From Bispira polyomma (lineage: Eukaryota): a stretch of DNA of 64,000 bases. The notes beneath the pieces were generated by a model. The model saw only the letters and a program-made list of their open reading frames with translations, was not told the origin of the DNA and searched no databases. Both the position numbers and the translations under genes were made by a program. This document shows, piece after piece, positions 10,627 to 64,000 of the stretch. The stretch is from assembly GCA_965649765.1 (NCBI GenBank), contig OZ287750.1, positions 100,006,001 to 100,070,000 on the forward strand, in the 5' to 3' direction. How positions within the stretch are numbered: the stretch's first letter is position 1; each line of letters opens with the position of its first letter.

Positions 10627-11599
10627 TTTATTATATGAAATCCCACCTAGCTTGGATTTTAGATATGTACCTATAAAAACTTTACGCATGAAACCATTTG
10701 GCTTTTAAAGCCAAGTGATAGCTTACTGCAAAATGAATCAGTTTGTCTCAAGTAGATTGCTTCAAACCAATCCATGGAGCCCTTACAAATTGGCGGCGTC
10801 CTTTTTAATGGCGGCAGCTGATAAAAAGAGACTAAAGTAAAATAATTTTTATATTTTATTAATGGAAAAGTAAAATATTTCTTATATTTTATAAATGGAA
10901 AGCACATGTGATTCATCATTTTATACTGAGATGGCCTGTTTGTCAGATTTATTATTGATAATCCACACACTAAACTTGATAGGTATGTAAGTGATTTATC
11001 ATTTTGCAAATGTTGAACATTGATCAGAAAATATGTTCTTCACCAGCAGGTCCCTTGGTAATGTTACTCAGAAAATGTTTTTTTGGTATGAAGAGTTTTA
11101 TTATCTAAACAACTATATTTAATATCAAAAACGTATTTATTATAAATGGCATCTGTAGTTGTTGGTATTTTAAAATGAATATATTGCAAACAATTAAACA
11201 GTTGTTTATGGAATGGTGTGAGACACTTATCTGTTCAAAATATATTTTTTCTATATTTAGTAAGTGCCATGTACTGTTCATCAAGTATTATTTTTCACAT
11301 TTCCTCAGTAACAGTCCAAGGGATCCGAGGTTAGGAAGACTAGGTGAATAGACACAAAATGCGGGTAAATTTATTCATTAGACTAAATGTTAGCAGCTAC
11401 TATGTACATAAGGTCACCTTACAATTTTGTTTAACTTAAACACAAGGGTGACTTAAGGTCACCTAAAATTAAGAAGAGAAATTTAGGAGAATAAATAAAT
11501 TATGTAAGGTCACCTTACTTAATACTATAATGTTCATATTTATAGAAGCCGAACCATAAACCGGTTCAGGAGTAAGGTGACCTGAAGGCTAAAGGAGGG

Positions 11600-12587
11600 T
11601 TAAAAGGCTAAATTTTGCCTGAAAGAGTCAGCAACCTGTTGACCCGCATCTGTTGTGTCAGTGACGTACCTCCAAATGCAGTCCGACGTCCAGGTGCCAT
11701 GGTGTTGAATCTTTTGTATACTAACATTATGATTAAAGGCAAAAGTGCCACCTAAACAACGGAAAGCGTGGAAAGTAAATCCAGAATCTTGCAGTTTAAG
11801 TCTAAGCAAAACGTCCTTAAAATAACGGCACACTCTAGTATCAGTGAGAGATTGCCAGTTGTCATTAACTCTGATTTTAAAAAGGGGTGAGTTAGGTCCT
11901 GCAGGAATAACTTTCATAATGGCCTCCAGTGAGTCGACTGGGCATAAAATGGAGCCAGGAAGCCTAGTGATAGTTATTAGTTTAATTTGGTTATTGATCT
12001 GCATGGTTTTAGACCATTTTTTGAGAATAATAGTTTTATCCGCCTGAAAAATGACATCAGCTCTAGCTAGGTGCCTTAGGGGTGAAAAATGAGAGGCCAA
12101 ATGAGGGACTAGATTTGACAAATGAAGAAAGGAGAAGAAACTAAGAAGGTAAACTGCTTGAAAGCTTTAAATATCAGTCCCATATAGGTAGAATTACACA
12201 AGGAGACACTATTTTTTAAGGTTTCAATGTCAATGATTCTCTTAAGTTTAACATTGAGAGGTGCAGACAACTGAACAGCTTTTTGATAGAAGGCTATACA
12301 CGGATCACTGAAGGCTACTATGTTTATATTGTGTAATATGGATTCGGCCCTGATAGCAGACAAGTAATTGGCCATATAAACAGGCTTGACTGAATTAGAA
12401 TGTAAAACTTCTAAAAAACATAGCAAATCGAACGCAGTCACCTCATGTGCAGGCCAATCCATAAACACTGCGAAAGCCAAGTACATACTGTACATGGCTC
12501 TGTAGGACCTGGCAGTGGACCGGCACAAGGTCAGATGGAGTTTTTTGGTTGCATTAAGGTACAGTTGCTTTTGTAAGGGAGTAATAT
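11600..12587 (-). pseudogene. Tyrosine recombinase (frameshifted)
   Basis: KWSKT, HAFRC, HGTWTSDCIWRY; frameshift near 12120-12160; strong acceptor ttttgtatgtttcag at 12588. Confidence 0.92.
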
Positions 12588-13337
12588 CTGAAACATACAA
12601 AAGGTACAAAGAAGTTCCTGCCACAGAGTGTTGTTTTATCAACACTTCCCCGCGTGACAGGCCAAAGGGTCAGAGGTCAAGAAGGCAAGATAGTAAGTAA
12701 GCAGAATGCGGTAAAATGTTTTATTGTTAGTCTATGTTAAACTACTACATACAACGTGACTTAAGGTCATGATAATTTGTAACTTTAAGTCATACTAAAT
12801 TGAATGAAAGTAATAATAACATTTTACATAACTTCAAAGAACAAGATAAGGTCACCTTAACACAGTTAAATAAGTGAAATTACAAAGCCCGTAGGGGACT
12901 TATAAATGGAGATGATCTTATAATTTAGACTACAAAAGGGGGCTAAAGATCACCTTAAATACAGGTTAGTATACTAAAATTTTAACCCATAGGGGAATTA
13001 ACGAAATTGAGGTGACCTTAAATGTATAGAAGAAGAGTTAAGTTGTAATTTTTCAGTTAATTACAGATTCTATTACCTTTTAATGAAACAGTTATTTCAT
13101 GAAGTTGAATTACTAGTTGTAGCATACAATTACTAGGAAATAAAATACTACTCTGTGAAGTTAACTTTATAGTTATAACATGAAATGACTAGCAAGTGAA
13201 ATAGTAATTTAAATTCTATATGACACTATACATGACTAGCATGTGACTACATGTAATGCAAAAGTTACATAATTATCTAGAATATGAAATATAGACTAAA
13301 TTTTGAGTAGAAACACCCAAACCCAGCAAGTAGGAAG

Positions 13338-14326
13338 CTAGGAAGAAGAAGTAGCAAGATGATGGCGAAATGTGTCCGATACCTGCTGGCCCGCATCCAC
13401 TGAGTCGGTAACATACCTCCACACGCAATCCGACGTCCAAGTGCCATGTTTTTGGATGTTCTGAATGCTGACGTTATGGTTAAAGGCAAAAGTGGCACCC
13501 GAACGTCGGAAAGCGTGCAGTGTGAGGCCAGAATCCTGCAACTGGAGCCTGGCAAGTATCGTTTTGAAATGCCTGCGGACACGGGTGTCAGTAAGCGGAA
13601 CCCAGTGAGATTTGTCTCTCAATTGAAATAAGGGTGAATTAGGTTCAGACGGAGTAAGAGCCATAATTGCCTGCAGTGACCCCACAGGGCAAAGAGGGGA
13701 ACCCACCAAACGTGGGATAGTAATAAGTCTAATCTGATTATTACTCTGCATTGTTTTGGACCATTTTACCAAAAGGACAGCTTTGTCCCTGTGAAACATA
13801 ACATCAGCCCTTGATAGATGTCTTAAAGCAGAAAACTGAAGACAGGAATGAGGTACTAAGCTGGATAACCTCAGGAAGGAAAAGTAGCTGACCAAATACA
13901 CAGCTGTAAAGATAGGACCCATGTAAGTGGTGTTGGAGACATTGACGATACTAGTCAGAAGAGGTATGTCTATAATCTTTTTGAGCTGAACATTTAAGGG
14001 GGCAGCTAATTGGACAGACTTTTGATAGTAAGCCAAGCGAGGGTCACTGAAGGCATGAATGGGCACATTGTATACAATACTCTTAGCTTTAATAGCAGAT
14101 AAATAATTGGCCATATGGGCAGGTTTTACAGAGTTAAAGTGTAACAATTCTAAAAAAACAAGAAGATCAATAGCTGTCACCTGGTCACAAGGCAGATCCG
14201 AGAAGGATGCATAAGCTTGGTACACCCTATACATAGCAGTATAAGATCTGTCTGTAGACCTGCAGAAGGCCAGGTGAAGCTTCTTCGTTGCATTTAGATA
14301 TAATAACTGCTGCAGGGGAGTTCTAG
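13338..14326 (-). CDS. Tyrosine recombinase (predicted to start at a splice acceptor)
   Basis: Catalytic residues present: FLRLSSL (R), KWSKT (K), HAFRR (H-x-x-R), HGTW (W), VWRY (Y); acceptor tgtgttatag|CT at 14327. Confidence 0.93.
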
Positions 14327-14408
14327 CTATAACACAAACACAAAGCAGACAAAGTAACATTTGTAAAGGTTGATCAACATAATACCATGCAACCAGACAA
14401 AGCAATAT

Positions 14409-16949
14409 CTAAATGTGGTGATTAAGCAGTAAGTGGTCCTCTGTCACGGCACACCATTGGACATTGCCCACCAGCTCCTGTAAGAGAACATTATCCTTAA
14501 TTGAATTTGTCCAGCGCGACAAGAGGTCAGCAGTGGTATTGTCATTTCCTAGAATATGAACCACCTGTATCTCTACATCGAGCTGGCTAGCCAGCATGAA
14601 TATGTTCCGTGAGTACAGGGCTAATTCGCTATCTCTAGTTCTACCATGAGTAAGGACACTTACAACCGCCTGGTTATCACATTTAATTAACAGTGTACGT
14701 CCTTGCCAGTATTTGCCCCACAATTTCAAAGCCACATGAATGTTAAGCATCTCCAATGAAGCAATATTATGTTTCTGCATAGCAGCAGGAATGGGAAGGT
14801 AATATACTTGTTTGCCATACACTCCTCCCATGCCTGTTAGGCAGGCATCCAACTCTACAATGTCAGTAATGGGGGCATGATGAAAAAATGTCACCCCATT
14901 GTGTTTATGGAGAAACTCGATGAACCAGTTAAGGTCCTTTTTGAACTCAGGGTTAATTTCCATACTTCTTTTGTGGTGATTGCTTCGGAGGAGTTGCAAC
15001 ATCCGAATCAGAAAAAATCGTGAGTACTTCACGCATTTAGAAATATATAGCAAAGAACCCAATAAACATTGGAGCTCCCGCTTAGTACACTGCTTTTTAT
15101 CACTCCAATTGCCACATATTTTTTGAACCTGAGCTAGTTTGTCCTCTGGTATCGATGTAGTGAACCGAACTGTATCTATAACTATGCCTAGGCAGGTTAC
15201 CCGGGTGGCTGGAGGAACCAGCTTCTTTTTGCTGAGAGTCAAACCTAACTCGGCCAAAAGGGCCTGCAGTCGGTGGTACGTTTTATAGATTTTTGAGGGA
15301 ACAGAAGAACATAACAGATCGTCTATATAGTTGGTGATTTGATGACCTTCACCTTCCATTATATACCTTATACCGTCAGAAATTCTCTGAAAAATCACTG
15401 AACCGTGTCGGTAGCCAAAGGGCAACGAGCCGTCGACATAGTAGCCGTCCCAGTATAAGCCCAGGCGATTGATGTCTCTGGGGTCTATGGTCACGTGACG
15501 GAATGCGCGACTAATGTCCGCTTTAAATAGCAAGGAGCCCCTACCGTTTTGCAACACTTGTTGGGTTATGTCATCTATGGAAGGGTAAGTAAGTACAAAT
15601 TCCTTGTCCAGATACAAACTCGATGACACGGCTGCATTAACCGAATGACCGATGGGCCAACTCAGATCGATTATGACTCGTCGGTTAACCGAGCTTGATT
15701 TGTCTCTAGTCATAAATGGGGATGTGTGCACATCATCAATTGGGGGATGGACGAAAGGTCCATACATAGCACCCATAGAACATTCTTCTTTCAGGTAATG
15801 GTTCACATGTTCAGGATAGTGATTGGCTGAAGCATGATTGTTCAAGTCAGACTTGAACTCGTGTTGTTCATTACAGTCAAGAGGAAATCTGAATTTTATC
15901 AGTAAGGGGAGTTCCCAATCCCAATAATTCGCTAAGTACTTTTCCCAGGCAGGGACCGTCAGTTGGGTGTGTATGGGGACTTGTAAACCCTTATAATTTG
16001 GTCTCCCATCCAATTTAAGGGACTTATGTAGTGTAAACACGTCTGTGATCAATTGGTTATTGGAACAATCAATCACTGGGGTACCCCAGGAACTAGTTGG
16101 TATGAACCCATATTTTCCACTATTCTGTATATCCCACAACTTGTAGGTCACATTATCTTTAGCTGCATTTAAGCGCTGTCTTTTATCAAGGCCTCCTGAG
16201 AGGTCCAGTACATACTTGTCATCACACGGGTTAGATCTCTTGTTAGGTGGTGGATTAGGTGTGAAATCGACCTTACATAACGTGTCACTCGAGTCAGGAA
16301 GTTCTACACCAGGAATGTCTAAACAACTAAACCGGTTATGAATGGGAAGGCGAAACCCACTATTGTTAGCATTACTTGGAGTGGTACCCGCGCCAATTGT
16401 TTTCACACTCGGAGAAACCAGAACTTTAGGGCACCCTTCGCCATCCCTTAGTTCAATTTTTTTGGACACAATTGGTTTGTTTTGTAACATACGGTTTGCA
16501 TTGTTACCGACCCGCCTATTCAAGGATGTTTTCACACCACCCAAAGGTGTTTTTCTTAACACCTCTTGGTGATTTGTTTTCTCACGTCGCCTGTCAGCTG
16601 GTGTATTTAACACCTTCACGGGTAAATGCTTTCTTCCCGACACCTTGTGCAATGATGAATTATGGAACACGAGTTTGCTACCTTGGGGAGTTTTATTAAC
16701 AGAAACAGTGTTAACTTTTCCCATTTCCCGGTTTCCACAAATCTTGGTATCAGTAACCACAAGGCCCTGTTTCAACACGTCCCGGTATGACCTGTTAACT
16801 CGGGGTCCAGTACACACATTATATTTACAACACACATGATCAAACAGTTTAAAATCCCTAAAAGTAGAATTATATACAACTCTAGAGCAGGTTTTATGTA
16901 CAAGTTTCTTAGCAGCCACTGCAATACTGCAGTGGCCCCTTAGTTTTTT
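14409..16949 (-). CDS. Pol: DIRS-type reverse transcriptase plus RNase H (probably reached by -1 frameshift)
   Basis: RRVIIDLS, KADISRAF, LPFG, NYIDD; RNase H LDACL, LEML, CDNQA, ADLLSR; overlaps the gag end in the -1 frame. Confidence 0.95.
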   Translation of the reverse strand, partial: KKLRGHCSIAVAAKKLVHKTCSRVVYNSTFRDFKLFDHVCCKYNVCTGPRVNRSYRDVLKQGLVVTDTKICGNREMGKVNTVSVNKTPQGSKLVFHNSSLHKVSGRKHLPVKVLNTPADRRREKTNHQEVLRKTPLGGVKTSLNRRVGNNANRMLQNKPIVSKKIELRDGEGCPKVLVSPSVKTIGAGTTPSNANNSGFRLPIHNRFSCLDIPGVELPDSSDTLCKVDFTPNPPPNKRSNPCDDKYVLDLSGGLDKRQRLNAAKDNVTYKLWDIQNSGKYGFIPTSSWGTPVIDCSNNQLITDVFTLHKSLKLDGRPNYKGLQVPIHTQLTVPAWEKYLANYWDWELPLLIKFRFPLDCNEQHEFKSDLNNHASANHYPEHVNHYLKEECSMGAMYGPFVHPPIDDVHTSPFMTRDKSSSVNRRVIIDLSWPIGHSVNAAVSSSLYLDKEFVLTYPSIDDITQQVLQNGRGSLLFKADISRAFRHVTIDPRDINRLGLYWDGYYVDGSLPFGYRHGSVIFQRISDGIRYIMEGEGHQITNYIDDLLCSSVPSKIYKTYHRLQALLAELGLTLSKKKLVPPATRVTCLGIVIDTVRFTTSIPEDKLAQVQKICGNWSDKKQCTKRELQCLLGSLLYISKCVKYSRFFLIRMLQLLRSNHHKRSMEINPEFKKDLNWFIEFLHKHNGVTFFHHAPITDIVELDACLTGMGGVYGKQVYYLPIPAAMQKHNIASLEMLNIHVALKLWGKYWQGRTLLIKCDNQAVVSVLTHGRTRDSELALYSRNIFMLASQLDVEIQVVHILGNDNTTADLLSRWTNSIKDNVLLQELVGNVQWCAVTEDHLLLNHHI
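16915..16949 (-). promoter_or_regulatory. -1 programmed ribosomal frameshift cassette (gag to pol)
   Basis: In-phase A AAA AAC, 6-nt spacer, 9-bp stem GCCACTGCA-GTAT-TGCAGTGGC; homolog at 20547-20582. Confidence 0.82.
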
Positions 16950-17935
16950 GACACTGAATTTTTGGAGCACAACTTGGTTTGATGCGTGCCACCACAGCTC
17001 TCACAGCAGTGTTTGAACCACTGTCCAGAAGTGCGATGGCTGGCATCAAATTTGCACGTTCCTTCTTGGAAGAACCGACAATTTATTCCAGCTGTTTTCA
17101 CCGAGGTTTTACCCCTACTGCCAACATTGCTCTTAGAAAGGCCAGACCCACTAGCTGAGGACGTTACATGACGCTGTGCATGAGCGCGCCTTACCCGGTC
17201 GACCTTTTCGACATCCGTCCAATTCAATCGGTCCATTTCCATGTTGGTTAACAAAATGGCGTGAGCGGCTTTGGCGGCGTCCCACGAAAAATTGTGGGCG
17301 TCATCCATCAGACATGCCAGATATTCCAACATGGCCTCGCGGACAGAGGACTCTTTTTGCTCTTGCGTACAGCGAACAAAACCGGAGACGAATTGGACCA
17401 AAGTAAGGTCATCATAAGTGGGTCTAACCTTTTTTACACCAGATAAGACAAAATTTTTTGGCCAATCAACATGACGTTTAACGGGAGCTTCCGCGCCACC
17501 TCTTTGGGATTTCAGTTTACCTCTCGTTAAAGCATTGAGTTGTTGCAGTTGCAGCAAGCGCTGGTCTACCTGACTCTGTAAGCCGGAATTTGAACGCAGG
17601 TAATCTAGGGAAGGCACAACGGCCTCAACCACTGGTTCACTAACACTAGGGACATTAGATACAGATTTAGAAACTGTGTTACATGCCTGTGCGCTGGGTT
17701 TACACAGCGCCGCCTCAGTAGCTTGTACTCGTTGATCCATGCTGTCCATCTTTTCATTCATCACGACCAGTTGTTGAAGTATCAAACTAGATACGGAATC
17801 AGAAACAGCAGGCACAGCAGGATCAACGGCAGCCACCTCATCAGCGACGCTGTCCAACGGATTAAATTTACATTTCTTCCCAACTGGACGTTCGTGCCGA
17901 CCAGAACATACACTACACGGGTATTCTTTAGGCAT
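16940..17935 (-). CDS. Gag-like ORF1 (331 aa) with N-terminal CCHC and C-terminal Cys/His zinc fingers
   Basis: CSVCSGRH..C at the N-terminus, coiled-coil-like segment, CRFFQEGTC..H..HCCESCGGTH..C at the C-terminus; directly upstream of pol. Confidence 0.9.
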   Translation of the reverse strand: MPKEYPCSVCSGRHERPVGKKCKFNPLDSVADEVAAVDPAVPAVSDSVSSLILQQLVVMNEKMDSMDQRVQATEAALCKPSAQACNTVSKSVSNVPSVSEPVVEAVVPSLDYLRSNSGLQSQVDQRLLQLQQLNALTRGKLKSQRGGAEAPVKRHVDWPKNFVLSGVKKVRPTYDDLTLVQFVSGFVRCTQEQKESSVREAMLEYLACLMDDAHNFSWDAAKAAHAILLTNMEMDRLNWTDVEKVDRVRRAHAQRHVTSSASGSGLSKSNVGSRGKTSVKTAGINCRFFQEGTCKFDASHRTSGQWFKHCCESCGGTHQTKLCSKNSVSKN

Positions 17936-18042
17936 GACTACACATTCAATTAAAAATGTAAAACAATATCTGGGTAGTAAAAGCCCGGGGTAGTAAAAGC
18001 CCCAATTGTAAAAACACTTGTATCTATGAACTGTTTTTAACT

Positions 18043-18077
18043 AATGATGGCGCCTGTTGGCGGCAATCCCTTTTATA
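18043..18077 (-). promoter_or_regulatory. Putative TATA box plus initiator of the intact YR element
   Basis: TATAAAA at 18077-18071; TCATT Inr-like motif with A about 32 nt downstream; about 110 nt before the gag ATG. Confidence 0.55.
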
Positions 18078-18166
18078 CTCGCCCCCGTGACCCCAAGTGG
18101 CCTAATTGGCCCCCCAGTGACCTGCCACCAGAACTGAGGGGGGCTGTCGCATGGGCGTCAGCCCAC

Positions 18167-20582
18167 CAGTATCAAATGCTGGTCAGTCACTGAGCACCAT
18201 TGGACTGGACCAGAATATTTAACTAAATATAATCCTGTGGTATTTCTCTCCATCTGGACAACAGGTCAGCAGTGGTGTTGTGATCACCTAGGATATGTAT
18301 GACCTGCAATTCTACATCATGATGGCTGGCCAACATAAAAATATGTCTTGACTACAAAGCTAACATACTAGTCTCTAATGCAACCATGTGTAAGGACAGT
18401 AACTACGGCCTGGTTGTCACATTTGATGAGCACTTTGTGACCAAGCCACAATGCACCCCACAATTTTAATGCTACAAATATTTTTAATTTCCCTAAGCAA
18501 GCAATATTCTGATTCTGTAGTTCAACTGGAATATTCATAGTGTAAACCTTCTGACCAACACCCCCCCCCCCCCCCCCCCCATGACAGAGATCTAACTCGA
18601 CTGTTACATTAATGGGGTTATGGTGGAAAAGGGAGACACCATTAAATAATTTAAGGAAAGTGCGAAACCAACTCTTTTGAAAACTCCTTGGAGATTGTAA
18701 AGGTTTTTGCCTTGTAATTACTTCTGAGTAGATGTAACATATGATTCTTTTTGAATCGCATGTTACATCTACGTATTTGACACATTTTAAAACGCAGAGA
18801 AGGGAGCCCAGTACACACTGGAGTTCCCTTTTCGTACAATACTTTTTACCAGCCCACTTGTCACACAAGGCTTGGATATTAATAACAATACCAAGGCAAG
18901 TAACTTTGGTGGCAGGAGGGACCAATTTCTTGTCACTTGAGGTCAAACCTAACTCAGCCAATAAGGCTTGTAACCATTGGTATGTTGAGTATATTTTTGA
19001 GGGAACCGAGGAACAAAGGAGGTCATCTATATAATTCATTATATGGTAACCTTCACCTTGCATAATGTACCTGACGCCATCAGAAATTCTTTGAAATATG
19101 GCCGAGCCATATCTATAGCCAAATGGGAGAGAACTGTCTACATAGTAAGCTCCCCAATACAGGCCTTGTAAATTGAGTTCTCTGGGGTTCATAGGCACAT
19201 GTCTGAAGGCTGATGTCTGCTTTAAATATCAGAGAACCCCTTTCCCATAGCAATTACCTGAGAGTTTATGGTGTCAATGGAAGGGTAAGTTATAAAAAAC
19301 TCTCTATTTAGATACGAAGTAGGGCAGACGGCTGCATTTACAGAATGACTTTCTGGTCAACTGAGGTCAATTATGACATGGCGATTGGCAGAACTTGATT
19401 TATCGCGAGTCATAAATGGGGAAGTGTGTAAATTTAAAATTGGTGGAGTAACATGCTCTGGGTACTGATTGGCAGAAGCGTGATTCTCTAGTGCCGACTT
19501 GAATTCATGTTGTTCAGTACAATCAAGGGGAAACCCAAATTTTTTTAAGCAATGGGAGTTCCCAGTCCCAGTAGTTTCTCAAGTAATTAGCCCATACAGA
19601 AGCTTTCAGCTGAAAAATGACAGGGACCTGGAGACCCGTGTAGTTTGGACGGCTATCCTTTCACAAGTGCTAATGGAGTACAAACACATTCATAGAATTT
19701 TGTTTCCGGGAATTATCTGAGATTTTTTGCCCCCCCCCGATGAGAGTGGAATAAATCCAAATTTCAAACTATTTTGGACGTCCCATAACTTGAAAGTATC
19801 ACACTCCTTTGCAACGTTAAGTCTTTTATGCTTATCACGCAACCTGCACATATCCAGAGCATTTATCATCCGATGAGTCAGTAATGTTATTGCTCAAGTC
19901 GTTTCTAGAAACTGACATTTTGTTGACGTTTTTATTTATACTCTTTTCATTCGACACGACCACACAGGAGGGGACCTTTATACAATCAATTAAGTTTGAA
20001 CTGTTCTCTCCCTCCCCACAATGTGTGTATAACACACCAAACCTTTTTTTTCGAGAGTGTCAATTGAAAATCATTGTTGGCACCCCTCATGTCAACCCCT
20101 TTCTGTTTGAATAATGGTTTGTTAACACCAAGGTCTTTTTTGGCGCGTCAAGCCCCTTGGACACCTCTGTTGACTTAACTGTGACACCCCATTCACACCT
20201 GTGTACAGGAGTGTGACTGTGGTTATTTAACCAGTTAGCATTACCAGAACAATGCATGGGATCAATTTTACTCTTAAGTGGTTTCTTGTCAAAAACAATA
20301 CCCCTTTGGTAAACCTACAATTTCTATTTTTGACAGATTCTTTTGCCAACACACACCTGTCAATTTTGCCCACAGCAGTATTACTTCTCGGGTTTTTTTT
20401 TTCATAACCTGATCCCCGACAAGCACATCTTTATATGATCTATGTACAATTTGGTTAGTACAAGAATACTTTTTAAAAGACATATTAGACAATAATTTAA
20501 AATCCTTGAAATATGAATTGTACACAATTCTACTATACACTGACATGCCCACTGCATTACTGCAGTGGGCCTTCAGTTTTTT
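18167..20582 (-). pseudogene. Degenerate DIRS-type RT/RNase H
   Basis: LPFGYRYGSAIFQRISD, NYIDD, CDNQAVV, ADLLSRW; several frameshifts. Confidence 0.92.
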
Positions 20583-21598
20583 AACCTTTTTTGAACACAA
20601 TTTTGTTTGATGTTTGCCATCACAAGTCTCACAACAATGTTTAAAGAGTTGCCCATCATCCATCAGGAGGTTCGGTGAGAGGCATTAAATTTGCAAGTGC
20701 ACTCCTGAAAAAATCGACATATGACACCTTGAGCTTTATTCTGAACCTTTGCTTTTCTACTAGAGCCAGATTTGTTATTAGCACCACTGTTGGCACCACC
20801 CGATATGTGACGTTGGGCATGAGCCCGGCTTATCCAAATGACCTTGTCTACATCGGTCCATTTAAGGCGATCCAGCTTCATATTAGTCAACAATATAGCA
20901 TGAGAAGCTTTAGCGGCTGCCCCAGAAAAATCCGTGGGTGTCATCCATAAGGTTGAATAAATATTCAAGCATGGCTTCCTTAATCTCAGAGGACTTTCGT
21001 TCTTGCACACATCTTATAAAGTCCGAAGTAAACTCAACCAGAGTTAAATCATCATAGGTTGGCCGAACCTTTTTGGCACCCGATAATTCAAAATTCTGAG
21101 GCCAGTCAACTGCCTTTTTAATGGGGGTATTGGTGCCACCCCGTTGGGATTTCAGTTTACCTGCTCCCGTTAACTGGTTGAGTCACTGTAGCTGCAGTAA
21201 ACATTAGTCAACCTGAGTTTGCAAGTTTTCATTCGACCGCAAAAATGTAAAGCGTGGACCACCGCCTCAACCCCTGGTTGAACTGCACTGGGAGTGACTA
21301 CATTTGATGTGACATTAACACTGCTATTAGGTAAAATGCTACCTGCCTTACTGGTGCTTGGTGGGCACAGCGCCCCCTCCGTGACCTTCATACGTTGATC
21401 CATGCTGTCCATTTTTTTATTCAGCGACTGAAATTGTTGTAAAATTAAATCAGATGTCGAGTTTGACTCACCAGCAATACAAATAACCGTGGTCACATCA
21501 TCAGCGATGCTGGCCTCTATAAATCGACACTTTTTGCTCACAGGCTGTTCATGTTTTCCCAAACAAGCATTGCACTGGTACTCTGATTTAGGAGTCAT
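20573..21598 (-). pseudogene. Degenerate gag of the older YR element
   Basis: MTPKSEYQCNACLGKH; GKLKSQRGG; CRFFQECTC; HCCETCDGKH. Confidence 0.9.
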
Positions 21599-22016
21599 AA
21601 TTAGTAATAAATAAAACAAGTTTTAAAACAGTAAAAGGGTACTTAAAGCACCAATCGTAAAAAGCACTGTCGTTGTTATATTTTTCCTTTGGTTTAATGA
21701 ATGTTAATTTTGTCTTTTGGTTGAATCATTTACATTATGTTATTGTTATTTTTGCAATTGGCATGTTAATTAATTACTGGTTGTAACAGTAGCTATTACT
21801 TTAGGATGAAACCCGTATATTGCCTGAGGACGTTCATACCTCTGCTGAAATAAGCAATAAAGCTCTTCCCTAGAATTTATTAAGATTTATTAACTGGTAA
21901 AATCTCTGTATATTTATAATCATGGTTTAAGTAGAGTGGAAATTATGAATCTATTTTTACTCTGTAATTAGATACTCTTCTGTTTATAATTGTTCCATAC
22001 AAGAAAATGTTGCCTG

Positions 22017-23150: not shown

Positions 23151-26100
23151 TATATTATATGGCTGTTTTAATCACTTTGCAAAGAAATATTAAACTTGTA
23201 AATGGTATTTGCATATAAAAATGATTAAAACGGTCACTAAAGACATATTTTGAGGCTGCCATAGTGGATTCCCAGGGTTAAAACATTTAACTGAGGTATA
23301 ATTTACAGGTTACTCATTTGTGTGTTTACGTTACTAAAGCCTTAAGGAAACATTTGGCAAATCTTAAATATACCAATCAGCTAGCCTGGGACATTGTCAA
23401 AGAGAGCTTTTTGTAACTCTTCTTGCAACTTTCAAAACACCAACCTAGTGCTCTCACAACATATTCTTTTAACTTAGTGAGATTTCAGGTAAAGCTAATC
23501 AGTCAGGGATTAGCTTGCAACACTGTCAGCAAAATTTAGTGTTCTGTAACACTTCCTGTAACTTTGCCCACCGCACACTTATCGTCAAGAGAAGCTAATC
23601 AGTCAACGGCTAGGCTGGGACACTGTCATGCAATTTTTTCAACTCCCACCCAGTGCTGTCAAAAAAAATTTACACTGTGAAAAAGGTTTAAATAAATTTT
23701 TATTTGTTTTTCATAAGTGATTTTGACAATTCCATGTACTTGGTTTATTTGTTACATGTCATTTTGCAACCAATAGCCATTTCACCACGGCCATTTTGGG
23801 ACCTTTGTAGTTCTAGAAATAATTCACCACTTGATTTAGTTTCTGACACATTTTTACTGAATGAAATACAACAAATAGTGGATACACATTATTTAAATGC
23901 CGAATTTGTTTAATGTGTACACAACATACTTTGTTTCAGTGCATCAAAAAGCCTATAGGACATACAATAGTCTAAAACTATTTGCCAAGTAGAGAACCCA
24001 GGCTGGGTGTAAATTGCAAATCAGATGAGACCTCAATAGAGGTAATATACATGTATTTCACACATTTCTACCTTAAATATTTATTAACTGAATATTAACT
24101 GAGATATCTTAAGTAACAGAAATATCTTGTAGATAAAACTACAAACAAAACAAATATAAATGCTTGAATAATTAAAGTATTAATAAGTTATATAAGGCAG
24201 CGACCCCAGCGTAGGGGTTTACAGTTTTGGGGTACCAGTCTTTTCTAAAATGTATAGCTTCATTGACTGCAGATTTCCCTATACAAGGATGTGCCATTTT
24301 AATGTCCGCCTTTTAAAAACAATAGCCGTACACAGAACATCACTTTGAAACAAATGTTCAAAATTTCTACAGTTTTACGTTGTTCCACACTGTTGTAGAG
24401 AATTTTAATCTGTTTTGTCTGTTTTATATCATTACTGAATTTTATCATGCCTTCGTCAGTGAATTGTTCTAAATGTTTGGGCCAGTCGGGGCTGAATGTC
24501 AGTTAATGGTTAATGCTACTACTGCTGACATTGACCAAGGTGAGGAACTCAGAGATGCTGGTCTGGCTCAGGATGTGGGGCTGAGTACTGTGTCAAATCA
24601 AATACTTTTACAGCTCCAGTCCATGAGCCAGATAATGGAAAAAATGGACTAGCATGTGCAACTGAGGCGGCGTTGGCAGCGGATGGAAACAAAAAACAGG
24701 CCAGTAATTTGACTTCTAGCAATAGCTCTGTAAACAATACGGCTGAAATAGCTACACCTGTCAATGAGGTACAAAATGTTATACCTCATTGATGTTATAA
24801 ATAACACAAAAATTCAAAGCCAGGTAGAACTTCGGTTGGCTAATTTGAAGCGCCTCAACGAAACCCCCAGTCGGGGTAAGCTTAAGTCTCAGAGGGGGGA
24901 GGGGTAGATGTCATTAAACGTGTTGTCGAATGGCCACAAAATCGTGTCCTTTTCGAGCTAAGCCCACATACGACGACTTGTCTATGAGCCAATGGGTATG
25001 TCGGTTCACCAGGATTATTCAGGATGAGAAATCAAATTCTGTTAGGGAACTAATGCTCCAATACATGTCCAAATTTATGGAGGACTCGGAGGATTTCTCG
25101 TGGGAGGCAGTGAAGGCTTCTTACACTGTTGTGCTCATGCACATGAAAATGAACAAGCTTTTGTGGTCCGACGTGGATAAATTAGACCGTTTACGAAGGG
25201 CTCACGCTCAGAAACAGGTGTCCAGTAGTAGTACTACTCCTGCTAATGCCAGTTGAGGCAGTAAAACCAGTGGCATGGCCAAACAAAGTGCAAATTGCAA
25301 TTTTTTCCAAGATGGGTCCTGTAAGTTCCCCAGTAGTCACAAGATAGGGAATATGTATTTTAAGCATGTCTGTGAAACTTGTGGGGGGAACCCGTAAAAC
25401 TAATGCATGTACCAGAAAATAGGTAAACGTTGACACAGTGGGCAATTACCATTTGGGTAGTATGTTTTATAATTCAAAATTTCAGGAACAGCATTTACTG
25501 GAAAAATCAGTTGTAAATAAAATGTTGTTGTATTACAGAGGTAAACAGACTCGCTGCACGTACAGCGACGCTGTTTCAGTGGGAAGTAAAATATGTCAAA
25601 ATAAAAGTGTTGGTGAACAAGTCCTGAAAAGTGACCCAAAGCCTTTCAATGCAGTAGAACTCCATAAGCAAACAAGGTGTCAAAACACCTCAGTGAAAAC
25701 TGTCTAAAGGTGTCGAAAATGGGTGTCCATGTCCTGGGTGAAGCCCCCTTTGTCTCGGCCACATGAAACAAAATAAATACTTTTGAGTCGAGACAAAGGC
25801 CTTCAACCAAAGGCGTGTCAAACAGAATAAACCCATGAACGAGATAGGAGGTCAGATTGTGTTGCATAATAGATTTCTTCCACTCTGCCAAACCACTGTT
25901 GAACCCCGGCAGCAATGGGGAGGGGGGGGGGGGGGGGGGGGTAACAGAACAGGGTGTTGATATTGTGCCTAAACAAAAAGCCTGTGTTAACTTTGTGTTG
26001 CACACGGCTGGTATCAAAAAATCAAATTCAATTAGTGTCACCAAAGATGATGGGGACAAATACTCTCTCGAATTTATAACAAAAACGTAACAAGCGAGAA

Positions 26101-26387
26101 CTGTTGGGCAAAGCTCAATTAAATGATACCTACATTCAATGGAAAGCCCAAAATGAAGTTGAATGTGGCTTTACGCCCCTGTCCAATTTAGGTTGTAAAA
26201 TCTGTGACTTTGGTAACACTGACCACAAATTCATAATTTTTGAAATGCACAACAAATTAAGACAAGATGGTAGACAAAATTTTCAGGGCCTCCAGCTTGT
26301 TGTTGAGTCGCAGTTAAATGCTGACAAGTGGGACAAATACCTTGAGAACTACTGTTACTGGCAACTCCTTTTGCTCATTAAGTATCT

Positions 26388-27643: not shown

Positions 27644-28399
27644 TGAATGGCAGATGATATATATACTTAAGAATCAATATTGCAATTTTTATGTTTTAAA
27701 TTTAATTAACTTCTAAACATTGTTAAATTTTGAGTTGGTATGTGAACATACGACTGTGTTGGTGTTTTTTTTTTTTGTTGGTTTTTTTTTTTCGAGTTGT
27801 ACATGTAAATAGTTTGCCGTTAATATGTTATTGAGAATAAATATTGAATCATGGACAGCTAGTAAAACAGCACTAATTTGTAATAACTTACAAATTGGAT
27901 TTTTAAAAATTTTATTGTCACATATGGTGGATACCTCATGACATAAACTATTGAACATGTGAAATGTACATAAGCTCTCTCAATAGTTCACAGTGTCACT
28001 TTTTTATTTTTTGTAGAGTATTTTATTTTGATAAAACATTCATTCTGTAAAGAACGCCTTAATTAAGTTATGTTAGTTTTTTTTTTCTTCTTTAGCATCC
28101 TTAGGTTAAGAAATATGTGTTTGTTTTTCAGAAATGCATTAAAAAGGTGTTACCTTCTTGCAATTATTATTAAAATGAAAGGTATAATTTTATTTTTTTC
28201 AATAGATATGTGGTCATCTTTTGTTAGTTGTAGCAAGTCAATAAATATTAAATATAAGGTACTAATGTGGTCTTCAAAGTCATCAATCATTGAAAAAATA
28301 ATGGTTAAAATAATTAATCGTCTACTCCAGTCAAAACAAAATATTTTGATGCTGCTTATTCTAGAGAGTGCTGTGTGTTATTACCGCAACTTTTTCCGA

Positions 28400-31300
28400 A
28401 ATAATATTAGGGTGTTATCTGCAAACTGTCAAGGATTAAGAAACAAACATAAAAGGATAGATGTTTTGGCATACTTCAAAGAAAGAGAAGCTGACATAAT
28501 TTGTCTCCAAGATACACATTGGATCAAAAGTGACTTGAGTCTGTGGAATGGCAATTGTTATATTCATGGGTCTAAAACCAATGCGCGTGGTGTAGCAATT
28601 CTTTTAAAAAGTAATTTTGAATATACTGTATTGTCAAGTGAACAAGACACAAAAGGAAACTTCCTTTGTTTACCTTAAAACTTAGCTCTATGACAATAGC
28701 TCTTATTACAATATATGCCCCAAATAAGGACACTCCACTTTTCTTTACAAAACTGCAGAATGTTGTGCAGAGTAATAATTTCGATCACTGCATAATATGT
28801 GGTGATTATAACTTAGTGATCAATCCTGCACTTGATACATACGGATATAAACATATAAATAATTCAAAAGCTAGGCTAACAGTACTTAATATGATGACCG
28901 ATTTTGATTTTCTAGATATTTATAGGCAACTACACCGAAACAATCGCCGATATACATGGAGGAAGAGAACTCCCCTAAAACAGGCCAGGCTTGATTACTT
29001 TTTGGTGTCCAAGAATATGTTAGATATAATAATTAAATGCGAAATTAAACCTGGTTATAGGTCAGACCACTCCATTATAGAATTAGAAATTGTGTTGAAC
29101 CATTTTAAGGTGGGAAAGGGGATTTGGAAATTTAATAATAGCCTACTTAAAAACATTGATTATTTAAATTTAATAAACAAAGTAATAAAAGAGGAAATTT
29201 TAAATTATGCGATACCTGTATATGACTTAAAATTTTTTGAAAATAATTACAATGATATTAATTTCATGATAGACAATGATCTCTTTCTTGAGGTACTGTT
29301 GCTCAGGACAAGAGGGGAAACAATTAAATTTACAAGTGCTGTAAAAAAATTAAATGCCTCTAAAGAAAAAGATCTGATGAAAGATATTGAGTATTTGGAA
29401 ACAAATATAGACTCCCAAAATTGTAATTTACAACTGCTATCAGATAAAAAAAGCCGAATTGGAATACATTAGAGAAAATAAAATGAAAGGGGCACAGGTT
29501 AGAGCTAGAATACAGTGGCTAAATGAGGGAGAAAAACCCTCCAAGCTATTCTGTAATGTAGAATCGAGAAATTATGTTGAAAAAACAAAATTACAATTAG
29601 ATGATGGTTAAACAATTTATGAGCAAAAGGAATTGCTACACCACGTCAAAACTTATTATTCCAATTTATTCAGCAACCGAGACATGTATCTTAATGTAGA
29701 AAGCTTTGATTCTTTGAAAGAGGTTCAATCAGAAAAAGTCACTTGGGTGGTTCTGTATCTGTAGGTGAATTGCAAACAGTTTTAAAAAAGATGAAACATA
29801 ACAAAACGCCAGGTTCTATATCTGTAGCTGAATTGCAAACAGTTTTAAATAAGATGAAACATAACAAAACGCCAGGAATAGATGGTCTTACTGTGGAATT
29901 TTTAATAGTTTCCTGGGGAATGCTAAAGTTTTTTATGGCTAGAGCAATCAACTGTGGTTTTGAAAAAGGTTCAATGTCAATAACTTTGCGCCAATGCATT
30001 ATAGTCTGCTTACCAAAAGGAAACAAGAACAGAAATTTTATGAAGAACTGGCGACCTATTTCACTAATTTCTGTAATTTACAAACTAGCTTCGGGTGTAA
30101 TAGCTCAAAGATTAAAAACAGTTTTAGATCTTATTATATCAAAATCACAATCTGGCTTTGTACCAGGGAGGCAGATAAGTGATAGTACCAGATTAATTTA
30201 TGATATAATGAATTCAGCAGAAGTAAAAAATCTCCCTCGACTTTTAATGCTTCTAGATTTTGAAAAGGCATTTGACTCCATTTCTTGGATATTTCTGTAT
30301 AAAACTCTAGCAAGGAATTTATCAAGTGGGTAAAACTCTTTAACACCAACATCAAAGCACATGTACTTCCATGTGGTACTTTATCTGAAGAAATTTCTAT
30401 TGAAAGGGGTTGCAGACAAGGTGACCAACTTTCACCATATTTATTTTTGATAGGGGCTGAAGTACTGTCTTCATTACTAAAAGTAAATCCAAATATAAAA
30501 GGTTTTAAGTTGAGAAACGAAGAGATCAAATTAACACAGTTTGCAGATGACACAACCCTTATACTTGATGGATCACAGCGCTCTTTAGAGACAGCACTTA
30601 ATATACTAGAAATATTTGGAAATTGTTCTGGCTTAAAAATGAACATGGAAAAAACAAAGGTGATCTGGATTGGTCAGAAATGTTTCTCTAAGGAAAAATT
30701 AAAAATAGAACACACCCTACAATGGGGCAACTCAGAATTTTCTATGTTAGGATTAAATTTTTCAACCAATTTAGGTGATATTCCAATCATAAACTACTCT
30801 GAGGCTTTAGAAAAAATTAAGAAGGACATGGTAAATTGGAGAAATAGATATCTCACACCTTTTGGGAGAATATCACTTATTAAAACCAAATTTTTGTCAA
30901 AACTGATACACCTCTTCATTACCTTGCCTGCACCATTAGGTATTTTGAAACAGATAAATAAAATGATGTTTATATTTATATGGAATCATAAACCTGATAA
31001 GGTTAAACAAAAAACCTTATGTGGGGATTATTCAAAATGGGGTTTGAAAATGATTAATATATTCCATTTTGAAAAGGCATTAAAAATAGCTTGGATACGA
31101 AAGACAATCTATCAACCAGAAGTAGGATGGAACAAGGTATTACACGAATCAAATAGTAAAGTAAAAAAATTATCTGGACTGGGTGGAGAATTAAATTCAA
31201 TCTACTCGAAAACATTGAAAAACGAGTTTTGGACCATTATTTTTGGATACTGGAATGACTTCTGTTCAAAAAATCAACCCTCATCAAATGATGAAATTTC

Positions 31301-32040
31301 AGATTCATGTGTATCGTATAATAGTCAAGTATCAAAATGTATTCTATATTACCCAACTTGGTACAAAAAGGGAATAAGCCTAGTGGGTGATATAATAAAT
31401 GCAGAAGGAACTGTAATTAGTCATGCAGAATTTAATAAAAAATATAACATTTCTACAAATATTTTAGACTATCACAGGTTAAAATTCTCGGTTGAGAAGT
31501 TCCTGATCAATATGGGCAGTAAAACTAAATTTCACACTTGATATCAAGGTTTGGGAAAATATTTTTAAGGCCAGTTTCAAGTCCATTTCAGATAACACAT
31601 TGATATGGTTTCAATATAAAATACTTTTTAACATTTTGGATACCAATCAATATTTGCATAAGATAAACGTAATTGATTCAAACTTTTGCAATTTTTGTAA
31701 GCGACATCCAGATTCTATTTACCACCTTTTCACTCAGTGCACTTATGTTGACAAATTGTGGCAAAATATATTAGATTGGATCTGGAAAAAGTTGGCTCTT
31801 AAAATAGAGCTAAGCGATGCTAGAAAAATTTTAGGGTATGAAGAAATGGACTTAAATTTCTGGCCACTGAACTTTTTGCTACTAGTACCAAGGTATTACA
31901 TATTTTGGTGCTCAAAGAAGAAATTTCAATTGAACATATATTTCCTTCAGAAAAAATTTAAAAATATATTTTTAGAACAAAAACTTTTGTCGAAAGTAAA
32001 TCAAACAGAACAAAAATTTGACAAGAAATGGGAAGTATGA
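28400..32040 (+). pseudogene. LINE ORF2: APE endonuclease, RT and C-terminal CCHC (frameshifted)
   Basis: VLSANCQGL, LQDTH, GDYN, RLDYFL, SDH; KTPGIDG, NWRPISL, LDFEKAFD, QFADD; CNFC..HLFTQC. Confidence 0.96.
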
Positions 32041-33262
32041 GAAAACCTAATAGTGTAAAAAATTGTTGTTTTTTGCTGAACTTCTGCATAAGATGACCAG
32101 TGAGAAAGTGAGCATTATAAAAAAAAAAAATTATTAAAAAACATGTTTTTTTTTGTTTTTTTTTGTGATTTGGTAACCAGCATCGTAGTATAAACTGTTG
32201 TAAAAAATTTATTGCATTTATTAAGATGTGCTTACTGTATATTTGTAATATTTTCTTATTTTTTTTTTATACAACAAACAGAAATAAAAGTATAAAAAAA
32301 AAGGTATCGCTTCCTGTTTGTATGTAGGGACAACATAAATCAGTCAGAGAATGCCAACCAAAGTTCTTCGAGTTGTTTTCCTGAACACGTGGAAATGTAT
32401 TTAAAAGAAGAATGCCACTTTGGGGCCATTCTAGGTCCTTTCACCAGCCCACCGATTAAAAACCTGCACTGTTCGCCGATGATGACTCAGGAGAAATCCA
32501 GCTCTGCTAATAGGTTTGTTATTATCGATTTAAGCTGGCCACATGGTCAGTCAGTTAATGCTGGGGCCTCTCCCACTTGCTATCTAGCCACAGAATTCAT
32601 ATTGTCTTATCCTTCCATAGATAAAATTACCAGTGAGGTCAGTAAGTTGGGCAGAGGTTGCCATATATATATAAGGTGGACGTAAGTCGTGCATTCAGGC
32701 ACGTCCCCATTGACCCCGGAAATATTAAATTTTTGTGCTTAAAATGGAAGGGCTTCTATGTAGATAAATGCCTTCCCTTTGGCCACCAGAACGGGTCCAC
32801 TATTTTTCAAAGACTCTCGGACGCGGTCAGATATATTATAAGGGCAGAGGGCCAAAACATTCACAATTACATGGATGATTTTTTGGCCATTAATTTGCCC
32901 AGCAAAATTGGGCCTAGTTATAACCGGTTCCAGGCGCTATTACAAAAACTTGGTCTCATGGTTAGTAGTAAAAAATTAGTGCCCCCCCAGCACACGTGTT
33001 GTGTGCTTGGGTATCCTCATTGATACTGAAACGTTCTCTAATTCTATACCTGAAGACAAATTATGTGAAATTCGAGACAAATGTCTGTCTTGGCAGGAAA
33101 AAACTCATTATACTAAAAAAGAGTTACAGTCGTTGCTAGGCTCCCTTCTGTATGTGGCTAAATGCATTAAGTATGCACGAGTTTGCCTTAACAGGATGCT
33201 CCAATTACTGCGTGATAATTATGGAAAAACCAGATTTCTCGTTACAAAGGAATTTAGGAAAG

Positions 33263-33490
33263 GACAAACTTGTTCAATTGTTATTTACGTGGACAGGATT
33301 GTGGTCAGGCCGGATTCGTTTCATTATTGTATTATTGTATGAACTATTAAGAGTATCTCAGTTGACTGTAATTGTATAATTGTTATTTTAATTGTTAAAT
33401 AAATTTGTTAAGTGAAATTTTTTGTCTTTTCCTGTTACAACTTGAAAGCAACCGGTAATTGCTACCGTGCTTGCTCCCGTGACCATAACA
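33263..33490 (+). mobile_element. Probable LTR 3' fragment replacing part of the YR-element RNase H
   Basis: Non-coding AT-rich insert with AATAAA ending in ATAACA; pol homology stops at EFRK and resumes at WTSRSDIE. Confidence 0.5.
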
Positions 33491-34677: not shown

Positions 34678-35779
34678 GTTTCTTGGGTTTGGTACTGGGT
34701 TTTCTGTCTCAGCTGTAAATATAAAATACAATGCATTAATGTATAATAAATAAAGCTTAAATGTGGACAGTACAGCAATGACTGTCTGGGGACATAAGGT
34801 CAACCTAACTGCTGGGTGCATAATGCACTCTTCACAGTCTTACTAGCTGAAACTGTACATAAGTTGGCATTCGGCTAGCTATATGTATAAAGTGTCAATG
34901 AAAGCATGGACGGTGACTAGGGGCTAAGTGTGCCATTGGTAAAGCAGTCGATTCTTATTACCAACCTGATATTTTAAATATCTACTATTTCACCTATGGA
35001 AACAGTTCCCTTCACAACTACTTCATTCACAGTTAGCTAGACAAGTTTACTTGTTAAATGTTTTACTGCATAATATCGTGCCCACAACAAACGTTTAGTT
35101 CTGATTCAGAATGAAGTTTCACCAAGATCACATCCGTACGAGTCGGTTGCATCTCAACAATTTTTACAGGGTAAGTCTCTTCCTAAAAAAACATCTAGAC
35201 ATTACAAGGGGTGTTTATCCGGTATGTATCAGTAAAAAGAGGTTATCTAATGATGATTGGACACATTCACAAGCCCTTCTATCATCAGGTGCAACGAACA
35301 GCACCTCTAATGCAGGAACAAAGTCTTGGGTTCCTTGTTATTATCAATCAAACCAATGTCATTAAGATACAGATAACAAGAAAGTGACGTCAGTATTGAA
35401 GCATATTTGTGCCAATTGTTTTTGTATTAGCTGAGGAGAGAACACTACTACTACACAGGGACAATTGCACAGTCAACGACTAGCTGATAGAGGCAATATT
35501 AGGTACAATTAGTAGTTTTGAAATGTATAATAGGTTAGATAATTCTACTAGAACTATAGACTCAAGTTTGGATTGCAAATTTAAATATTGTGAGATGAAC
35601 AATGAAATTAACAATTTTGATAAGCTAAACACATTATCCAGTAATGGGACAGACACGCAATTTTTAATTGGTAATTCATATATAATTACAATCATATATA
35701 ATTACAATCAGTATAGCAGTCAATACTGTTTTTTTAACAGTAAAGACATCGATAATTTGTCAGCATTAATAATTTAATG

Positions 35780-61422: not shown

Positions 61423-64000
61423 CATAACTTGAGTTTAAGGTAAAGTAGTAGAGGTCCAAAGAAGCTAATCACATGCAACATGGTTTATCGGCGATCAATT
61501 TATGTATTTACATTATCAGTGCCTCGTACTTTATATTTGTAGCTGTGACCTTAACAGATGACCTTGCAAAGTTAGTACTTTAAGCAAGAGAAGCAGTTGG
61601 GCTATATATATTTATTTCTACTTACTACACTATGTACAGATTGTAAAATAGTTAACATTTGTGAAATATATAAGGCCACCCTATGAGTTTAAGTAAAGAT
61701 AATTTAAAAGCAGTTTAAGTTTAAGCAAATAACTTTACGTTAACCTTAACTTACTATACGTAAACTGGTTTTAAGGTAATCTTAACAGTTTAAGTTTTAA
61801 CTTTAAGAATTGATATATGAGGTTACCTTTAATTTGGAAGTTAAGGTGGCCTTAAGATTTGATGAAGTTTGAAGTGTAAATTTTAAAATGTAAATTATTT
61901 AGTGAAAGAAGAGCACCAAAGCCCAACTTAGGATGTAGTGGTTGCAGCGAGTCTGGCCTGGAAAGCCAGGGCTACCTGGTCTGAAGCTGAATGATTTTGT
62001 GTTATATAACTCCATACGCAATCTGAGGACCAGATACCATGGCTTTGAATATCTTGGATTGGGACGTGAGAGTTAAAGGCAAAAGTGGCTCCTGAGCGAC
62101 TAAATGAATGAAAAGTGATATTTGTGTCACTTTTGCCTAATCTACTTAGAATAGTTTCTCCTCAATTTGCTATCTGTTAAGGGCAACCAAGTGCCATTAA
62201 CCTTGATCTGGAAAAGAGGTTTGTTCTTAGAATCTGGGGTAATAGCCAGTAATACTTGTAAGGCTCGAACCGGACAAATAGTTGAATTGTCTAAGACAGG
62301 GATTTTAACCACTTTGATGGTGTCTCTATTCTGTAAAGTTTTTGATTATTTAATTATTATGTGGGCACCAGGTGGGGCGAATAATATGTCAGCCCTCGCT
62401 AGTTGTTGTAGTGGTGTGAAGGCAGCATAACTGTGTGGTACCAGATTTGAAATTCTTCAAAAGGAAAAGAAAGCTGTAAGGTAGGCAGCCTTATTTACCT
62501 TACCCATGTACATGAAATCACATACCAGAGCTATTCTTGTGAGTAATTCTATATCAATAATGGAATTAATTTTTGCTTTAAAGGGTTTTTGGAGCACTAA
62601 TGCTTTTTGGAAATATGTTAACCTTTGATCAGAGAAAGAAGTTGTGTCCTACAGGGAACAATTAGCCTTAATAGCAGCCAGATAATTAGCTATTGATGTG
62701 TGGGTGACTTTATTGGACACTAAGCATTCTAGAAATGCCAGCAATATAGGAGTTGTGATTTGAGTAACAGGTAAATTTGCAAAGCAACAATATGCTAGAA
62801 AAACTCTGAACATCGTGAGATAAGCTTTTTGAGTGGAAGGCTTAAATGCTTGTTGAGCTCTCAGGGCTGCCTTGGCTGCAGCTTTTCCAACCCACCCTTG
62901 GAGACCTGAAATAGAGTTTTCTATATAGACCAGTCAAGGTCCAATATTTCATCAGAGACTGGAACCCATATGGGTTGTGGGATGACTTGTTTAAGTTTAC
63001 TTATATTATTATCAGTAATGTCCCATCTTGACAACAAATCAGCTGTGTAGTTGTCCTTACCAAGAATGTGTACTGTTCTGAGCTCAATGTCAGCCCTAGC
63101 AATTTCCATAAATATATTTCTCGCCATTGCAGCTAAAGTAAGGCCGTAAGTTTTACCAGAGTTTAAAATAGAAACGACTGCTTGATTGTCGCAATGCACT
63201 AATAGTTTTTTACCTGTCCATTGTGATATCCAAACTCGAATTGCGACAAGTATGTTAATCATCTCTAGATGTACTATAGTGTAATTTTTGAAACCAAGGG
63301 GAATTGATTTGGTATATACTTGATTGTTACATCTTGCACCTATACCCTGAAGGCAGGCATCTAACTCAACCTGTTCTGTGACAGGGGCATGGTAAAAAAA
63401 CGCCATGCCATTAAATGTTGGTAAGAAACTCTTAAACCAATTTTAGTCTTGGTGAAATTCCATATTCAGGTTCATTTTTGTGGGATTGTTAGCCGAACGA
63501 AGTGTGTCTAACATTCGGTTTAAGCTTTTTACGCATTTTGATACATATAACAATGATCCCAGCAATGATTGTAGCTGATTCTTAGAACACATTTGCTTAT
63601 TCTCCCAAGATTTACAAATAGCTTGAATTTCTTGCAATTTTTTGTCAGGAATAGATACAGTGTAGTCTTCTGTATTTATTAATACACCTAAACAAATGAC
63701 TTTTGTACTGGGTTCTACTATTTTCTTTTGGCTTAAAATGAAACCAAATTTTTTGAAGATGTCCTTTAAGGCAGTAAATGAGGCATCAATTTTGTTACTA
63801 GGGCCAAAGCCTATGACGTCATCGATATAATTTATGACGTCATAACCACGTGACGTCATGACATATCTAATTGCGTCACTGAGTCTTTGAAAAATGGCAC
63901 TGATGTGGCGATAGCCAAATGGGAGGCACGTGTCTATATATACATCTTCCAGTTTAAGTCCTAAGAGTTCATAATCAGCTGGGTCAAATTTTACGTGCCG
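61423..64000 (-). mobile_element. Degenerate Ngaro-like YR retrotransposon (RT/RNase H 64000-62921, YR 62905-61928), continuing beyond the window
   Basis: LPFGYRH, NYIDD, LDACL, CDNQA, ADLLSRW; YR with RISNLVP, FHSFSRSGAT, HGIW. Confidence 0.92.

Follow-up and report, generated by a model that had tools for sequence, protein, structure and literature searches.

A conserved palindrome array in the B repeats of Ngaro-like retrotransposons from Bispira polyomma

Structure of the locus

The window, a stretch of 64,000 nucleotides from contig OZ287750.1 of Bispira polyomma, contains an intact tyrosine recombinase (YR) retrotransposon (18168-12643) inserted between the RT and the YR of an older element. 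The ends of the intact element were set from 20 close copies and its coding regions from open reading frames (ORFs). The features are as follows, with mismatches in dyad copies counted against the 13-bp palindrome TAAGGTNACCTTA.

12643..18168, minus strand: intact Ngaro-like YR retrotransposon of the form A1-gag-RT/RH-YR-B, with no A2-X-B2 tail; begins TG and ends TG
18006..18168, minus strand: A repeat of 163 bp, containing TATAAAA (18077); 4 of 20 close copies have it a second time as A2
16940..17935, minus strand: gag, with an N-terminal C-x2-C-x3-H-x7-C finger, a predicted long helix (residues 44-78) and C-terminal CCCH/CCHC-type fingers
17521, minus strand: splice-donor-like AG/GTAAAC within gag
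14409..17000, minus strand: RT/RNase H frame, no methyltransferase match
13338..14408, minus strand: tyrosine recombinase frame with H-x-x-R, H-G-x-W and W-R-Y
Ending near 14327, minus strand: acceptor-like pyrimidine tract and TAG in the YR frame
12643..13319, minus strand: B repeat of the intact element, about 676 bp; includes the array and the right end, with AATAAA at 12725
13008..13020, no strand assigned: dyad copy, 1 mismatch, C centre on the element's sense strand
12945..12957, no strand assigned: dyad copy, 2 mismatches
12847..12859, no strand assigned: dyad copy, exact, G centre on the sense strand
12762..12774, no strand assigned: half site only, 3 mismatches
11600..12642, minus strand: YR of the older element, frameshifted; 67-69% to that of the intact element
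11297..11599, minus strand: the older element's B region, shortened, and its right end; dyads at 11573, 11505, 11454 and 11409
18169..21601, minus strand: 5' part of the older element (gag, RT/RH, broken), parted from its YR by the insertion
34795..34807, plus strand: first B-region copy of a truncated YR element whose intact relatives have 4-7 copies
61671..61854, minus strand: third array, five copies, the outer two being complementary variants; a diverged YR (44-52%) lies upstream

The intact element has gag-like, RT/RH and YR frames in Ngaro order, with Pfam matches to RVT_1, RNase H-like and Phage_integrase. No Pfam methyltransferase match is found at E<=0.05, and the YR directly follows the RH. 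The copy in the window lacks A2-B2, but its relatives, including members of other clades, carry split direct repeats in the order A1-B1-A2-B2. Among the close copies (L011-L030), 4 of 20 have the form A1-ORFs-B1-A2-X-B2, with A of 163 bp, a spacer X of about 485 bp and B of about 676 bp duplicated as B1/B2 (L016, L017, L018 and L030); the other 16 lack A2-X-B2, and 2 of these are also 5' truncated. Together with solo B and A-X-B pieces (L112, L135 and L143), the tail-less copies suggest recombination between B1 and B2. Spacer X adjoins a YR at 26 of 30 loci. In L016 (6922-7406, between A2 and B2) it opens with a pyrimidine tract and AG, resembling a splice acceptor, as it does in other clades.

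Likeness to Ngaro-like retrotransposons, as laid out in the available portions of four publications on the order DIRS (PMC9210276, PMC8547959, PMC4157794, PMC6681497), covers the gag, RT/RH, YR order, the A1-ORFs-B1-A2-B2 repeats, the missing methyltransferase match, and the H-x-x-R and Tyr of the recombinase. The present elements differ in that a spacer of ~485 bp separates A2 from B2 and that many copies are only A1-ORFs-B. By structure the elements fit a Ngaro-like assignment, in a tree that holds no named Ngaro or PAT references, and structure alone can mislead in classifying such elements, according to the accessible part of one source (PMC4157794).

Three insertions in repeated DNA (L029, L044 and L027) reveal the empty site: there is no target duplication, no bases are shared with the target, and both terminal TG dinucleotides belong to the element. 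Contigs from three sequencing runs of one study contain the B/A joint, which is no proof of circles because full-length genomic copies contain the same joint; none of the sequencing runs listed is an RNA run. YR relatives in other assemblies number 375. By eye, a downstream open frame in three metagenome YR loci (L217, L231 and L232) resembles the SGNH hydrolase of some Ngaro elements. Elsewhere in the window, a plus-strand YR element (24482-26385 and 32302-34656) is split by a LINE-like insertion and cut off shortly past its first motif copy, a broken integrase of Gypsy type (Pfam rve, H2C2) occupies 2036-2776, and a LINE-like region with endonuclease/RT, likewise broken, occupies 28067-32040.

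Palindrome copies in the window and the genome

The initial annotation had placed ten perfect, near-perfect or variant copies of the palindrome in the 3' regions of YR elements. The array is real. Matches to TAAGGTNACCTTA lie at 11409 and 11505 (0 mismatches) and at 11454 and 11573 (1 each) in the older element, at 12847 (0), 13008 (1) and 12945 (2) in the intact element, and at 34795 (2), where a variant had been noted. Eight of the ten sites thus have 0-2 mismatches; the others, at 12762 (3, one arm intact) and 12908 (4), are not near-perfect. The window as a whole has 17 matches at <=2 mismatches against 4.2 expected, a number reached by 0 of 100 shuffles, and a third array of five copies behind another YR gene (61671-61854) was absent from the original list. 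Start-to-start spacing is 45, 51 and 68 bp in the older element and 63 and 98 bp between good copies of the intact element. The remark that the intervening DNA is not conserved agrees with the two B regions, which give no mutual blastn match at E<1e-4; in a global alignment of older and intact B, the motifs and the last ~110 nt line up, with short patches only between them.

The 1.035-Gb genome contains 7,312 exact sites, whereas the reversed pattern gives 90; exact pairs 10-40 bp apart number 521, with 0 in the reversed control. The motif is not common in unrelated DNA and does not belong to an independent minisatellite. In the YR elements the array occupies B, the 3' one of the split direct repeats, downstream of the YR stop and upstream of the last AATAAA. 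Where the YR end could be mapped (96 of 100 YR loci, with 40 loci belonging to one clade), 245 copies at <=1 mismatch fall within 1 kb past the stop and just 1 across all bins up to 5 kb upstream. Past the last copy, AATAAA follows after a median of 60 bp and the right end after a median of 150 bp (34 families). The array is kept across lineages with YR identity of ~30%, in a quick tree from which 3 short rows were dropped; the count of deep lineages is biased, since it was the motif that led to many of the deep rows.

An unbiased sample, the first 51 exact sites of contig C1, makes up 33 loci. Ten lie within 900 bp behind a YR match, and 12 carry the B-end hallmark against a background of 1.9%. 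By eye, solo B regions account for several more, chance matches in RT coding sequence for two and an LTR family for another two, and about ten of the 33 are not tied to a YR element. The exact motif in RT coding DNA falls on K-V-T-L codons (L111:2525 and L131:2496), a coding coincidence. Tandem arrays with one motif per unit have units of 39 bp (L260:5006-5212, 149 kb from the contig end), 28 bp (L126:1657-1893) and 96 bp (L114:1417-2293). Metagenome YR loci of other hosts show 0 motif matches in the 25 of 34 that have enough 3' DNA, an absence that is confounded because YRs with enough 3' sequence are outgroups. Viral contigs contain no YR relative and no motif pair.

Symmetry of the site

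The profile built from 121 sites, taken from 28 non-redundant B regions, is near-symmetric and extends weakly to TTAAGGTSACCTTAA. The centre base is C or G in 93 sites and A or T in 28, and both arms are conserved irrespective of it. A dyad with a 1-bp spacer is seen 84 times against 1.2 expected, and each other spacer of 0-15 bp at most 13 times. The symmetry is consistent with the original proposal of a site for a dimeric protein, since a fixed sequence with dyad symmetry would be expected where such a protein reads a duplex. A strand-biased companion, CTTAAACT, is also enriched (27 vs 4 in reverse).

Two other forms of site were considered and rejected. A hairpin formed by a single copy disagrees with the substitutions, of which 3 of 46 double changes are compensatory and 23 of 107 single changes wobble. 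Core sites of the loxP/dif type have a 6-8 bp spacer at the crossover, flanked on either side by an arm of 11-13 bp; here the spacer is 1 bp, and the palindromes are not core sites because the recombining junction, ~150 bp off, looks unlike the motif. The analogy with arm or accessory sites drawn in the initial annotation is half sustained: repeated sites do lie beside the donor crossover, but fixed, helically phased spacing is missing, with phasing at 10.5 bp not convincing at either <=1 mismatch (R 0.04) or <=2 mismatches (R 0.18).

Pairing between copies

Partner copies carry compensatory changes. Complementary substitutions between two copies of one element number 24 against 11.4 in rank-preserving shuffles (P=0.001). 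With one family per clade the median P is 0.0025-0.005, weakening to 0.06-0.18 under the stricter limit of <=2 mismatches, and same-orientation sharing of changes is likewise enriched (14 vs 6.1). In one clade, for which 20 of 34 loci were skipped, C6 is present in the first copy of all 14 analysable loci and the matching G8 in the last copy of 12 of them, while either change occurs in 0 of 42 middle copies. The outer pair is A9/T5 in a second group and C8/G6 in a third (30 loci). GGGCA/TGCCC flanks around the outer pair produce 18-bp inverted repeats, and a C-centre copy precedes a G-centre copy in 83 cases against 13. First and last copies likely pair with each other, because complementary changes appear in three separate clades and not in middle copies. 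The outer pair is not seen in several lineages (L270, L258).

For 8 of 8 arrays the computed fold has a z between -2.8 and -5.4; scrambling the motifs shifts this to between -2.2 and +0.7. G.T and A.C in paired copies stand at 23 vs 25, 6 vs 3 and 2 vs 2 across three tests; no folding strand is favoured, because G.T does not clearly outnumber A.C. The array has no match in Rfam. The covariation between copies lends support to the suggestion, made at the outset as an alternative, that the palindromes act as RNA signals.

The motif in a Gypsy LTR family

One Gypsy LTR family without a YR carries 2-5 motif copies, all in direct orientation, in 14 of 14 fetched loci. Its LTR is 3.63 kb long and has TG...CA ends; all 5 of 5 solo copies show 4-bp duplications, and no YR match is seen. 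In L194 the LTR is followed by primer-site-like sequence and a CCHC gag. The array consists of 2-5 tandem 44-bp units that share the companion AAACTTAAACT; with the motif masked, the LTR flank has no clear kinship to 133 B regions. The family may have captured its array from a YR element or gained it independently. This family (L203:340-3967 and relatives) has many solo copies, some near chromosome ends, and diverged relatives of it were located. A further 20 Gypsy loci from about 10 families have no family-wide array, and the idea of a general LTR enhancer is not supported, given about ten other Gypsy families without the array. Of the other motif clusters, those in L283 and L285 have no counterpart in the 93-95% twins of these loci and resemble inserted B regions, and the one in L291 is another repeat.

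An array-less clade and the Gag finger

An active YR clade does without the array: in a search from a motif-less YR, a copy at <=1 mismatch occurs in 0 of 30 loci. The Gag N-terminal zinc finger of this clade is reshaped, and its members repeat no replacement dyad. The array is missing from 12 of 12 elements seen with a C-x2-C-x8-H finger, which has a five-residue insertion; all are of one clade, so that the link between finger and array is a single evolutionary event. Twenty further elements have arrays in 2 cases, one copy in 2 and none in B in 16. The x3 finger is found in L344, yet this element has no copy, and L342 and L355 have only one; in this lineage of at most one dyad copy, TAAGTGCA is repeated several times in B instead. 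Gag N-termini of motif-bearing elements are 16-51% identical and their finger residues vary, while the motif is fixed.

The initial annotation took the YR or a GagN-YR protein as the simplest reader. The YR has only ~30 residues ahead of its core domain and no N-terminal arm domain, and an arm-type reader would therefore have to be a GagN-YR fusion. In 8 elements a donor-like site falls at one Gag glycine, and in 7 an acceptor-like site precedes the YR; together they predict a Gag(N)-YR fusion that would add a zinc finger and a long helix to the recombinase. A fold search with GagN gives no match at E<=0.001, and an Atlas search no usable match.

Interpretation

Judged from their sequence, the palindromes make up a cis-element that a deep clade of Ngaro-like retrotransposons conserves in the B split repeat. 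The reading preferred here, tentatively, is that they may serve as a folded accessory platform on the copy intermediate, read by a dimeric element protein, the spliced GagN-YR, whose binding is putative. The outer copies would pair in a single-stranded copy intermediate and yield a folded landing platform for protein; the duplex dyad would be recognised by a dimeric protein of the element, for which the predicted Gag(N)-YR fusion is the likeliest candidate; and this would take place next to the B/A junction, which would be recombined into the chromosome. We infer the binding, its dimeric state and the identity of the protein as GagN-YR, as well as pairing in vivo and a part for the array in building the integration complex. 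Counting against this reading, a whole clade transposes without any dyad array. A more elaborate version is quite unlikely: Ngaro integration would proceed through a lambda-like intasome on folded single-stranded cDNA, in which a spliced Gag-finger-YR dimer reads dyads from paired palindromes, so that the junction captures targets without shared sequence or duplication.

A host homodimeric DNA-binding factor is a smaller but real possibility, retained because the motif outlasts protein divergence and occurs in an LTR. The array would then work like U3 as an enhancer or insulator, with the TATA box of A2, or that of a circle, 240-500 bp downstream. That the motif stays the same between YR lineages with proteins only ~30% alike fits such a factor, as do the tandem 44-bp units with the same companion in an unrelated LTR, the location of B1 just upstream of A2 and its TATA, and the roughly 10 of 33 unbiased loci not tied to a YR element. 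The 0 matches in 25 metagenome loci of other hosts also fit, but the YRs concerned are outgroups. About 10 other Gypsy families lack the array, the main promoter, A1, has no array upstream, the published literature yielded no matching factor, and an array of factor sites has no need of position-specific complementary changes in its outer pair. Another account is structure alone in RNA or single-stranded cDNA, with a closing helix for dimerisation, packaging or strand transfer that Gag or RT would read by shape and not as duplex DNA. The outer-pair changes and their flanks fit it, as do the C-before-G polarity, motif-dependent folding and the placement of the array upstream of the last AATAAA. 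Pairing alone does not explain an invariant sequence, however; single copies are not hairpin-like, direct-only arrays exist, and neither a strand bias nor an Rfam match was found, and a purely structural role is unlikely.

Two further accounts have little probability. Neutral spread of palindromic seeds by duplication and inversion during reverse transcription would produce motif-bearing tandem units such as those of 28, 39, 44 and 96 bp, and would enrich direct and inverted sharing alike, as observed. It is very unlikely in view of a 13-mer that persists while spacers and proteins diverge past alignment and that is strictly confined to B. Monomeric nuclear-receptor half-sites, which the initial annotation had raised on account of the AAGGTCA in the motif, are scarcely credible. 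The C- and G-centred copies (93 of 121) do hold AAGGTCA on one strand, but the idea fails because both dyad arms are kept: the AAGGTCA arm has 25 changes against 15 in the other arm of C-centred copies and 30 against 31 in G-centred ones, and the 28 A/T-centred copies lack AGGTCA altogether. An extended half-site, with the AAGGTCA arm kept and the other free, is not what the profile displays. The two half-sites overlap by 3 bp, and two receptors could not occupy them together.

Relation to known systems and significance

Lambda Int arm-type sites and other YR accessory sites are repeated, non-core, and located on one side of the crossover, 100-500 bp away, in the donor only. The palindromes share each of these properties; they differ in being dyads that probably pair mutually and in their variable, unphased spacing, and only a fusion to GagN, with putative binding, would give the YR an arm domain. 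In integron attC and CTX phage attP, duplex YR sites are rebuilt by folding of one strand. The same principle may operate here, the cDNA of DIRS-1 being single-stranded according to the available part of one report (PMC7192593). In contrast to attC and attP, the paired sites lie away from the crossover and no strand preference was found. Mobile elements also carry arrays for host factors, among them the gypsy Su(Hw) sites, LTR enhancer repeats and baculovirus hr palindromes. Common to these and the present array are a terminal location, a fixed site in 3-8 copies, variable spacers between the copies, and tandem amplification in one LTR family; here, unlike in those systems, a matching factor was not found in the literature, the outer pair covaries, and most LTR families tested lack the array.

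A conserved dyad array inside B goes unmentioned in the available portions of the four publications on Ngaro-like elements (PMC9210276, PMC8547959, PMC4157794, PMC6681497). Variants of the 13-mer were not found in published papers, and no title on such an array in these elements was found, within a coverage that excludes closed journals, Repbase, supplements and the original Ngaro papers. The array looks like an undescribed cis-element of a known element type, with a putative protein reader.

End recognition and integration of DIRS-order elements are an open question, and YR specificity had not been tested as of 2020, according to the accessible part of one source (PMC7192593). An invariant short site with natural compensating variants offers direct substrates for binding and integration tests, and the array-less clade with its changed Gag finger, together with dozens of young intact copies, supplies natural controls. 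If the reader is instead a host protein, these elements would have spread over 7,000 exact sites for it through the genome.
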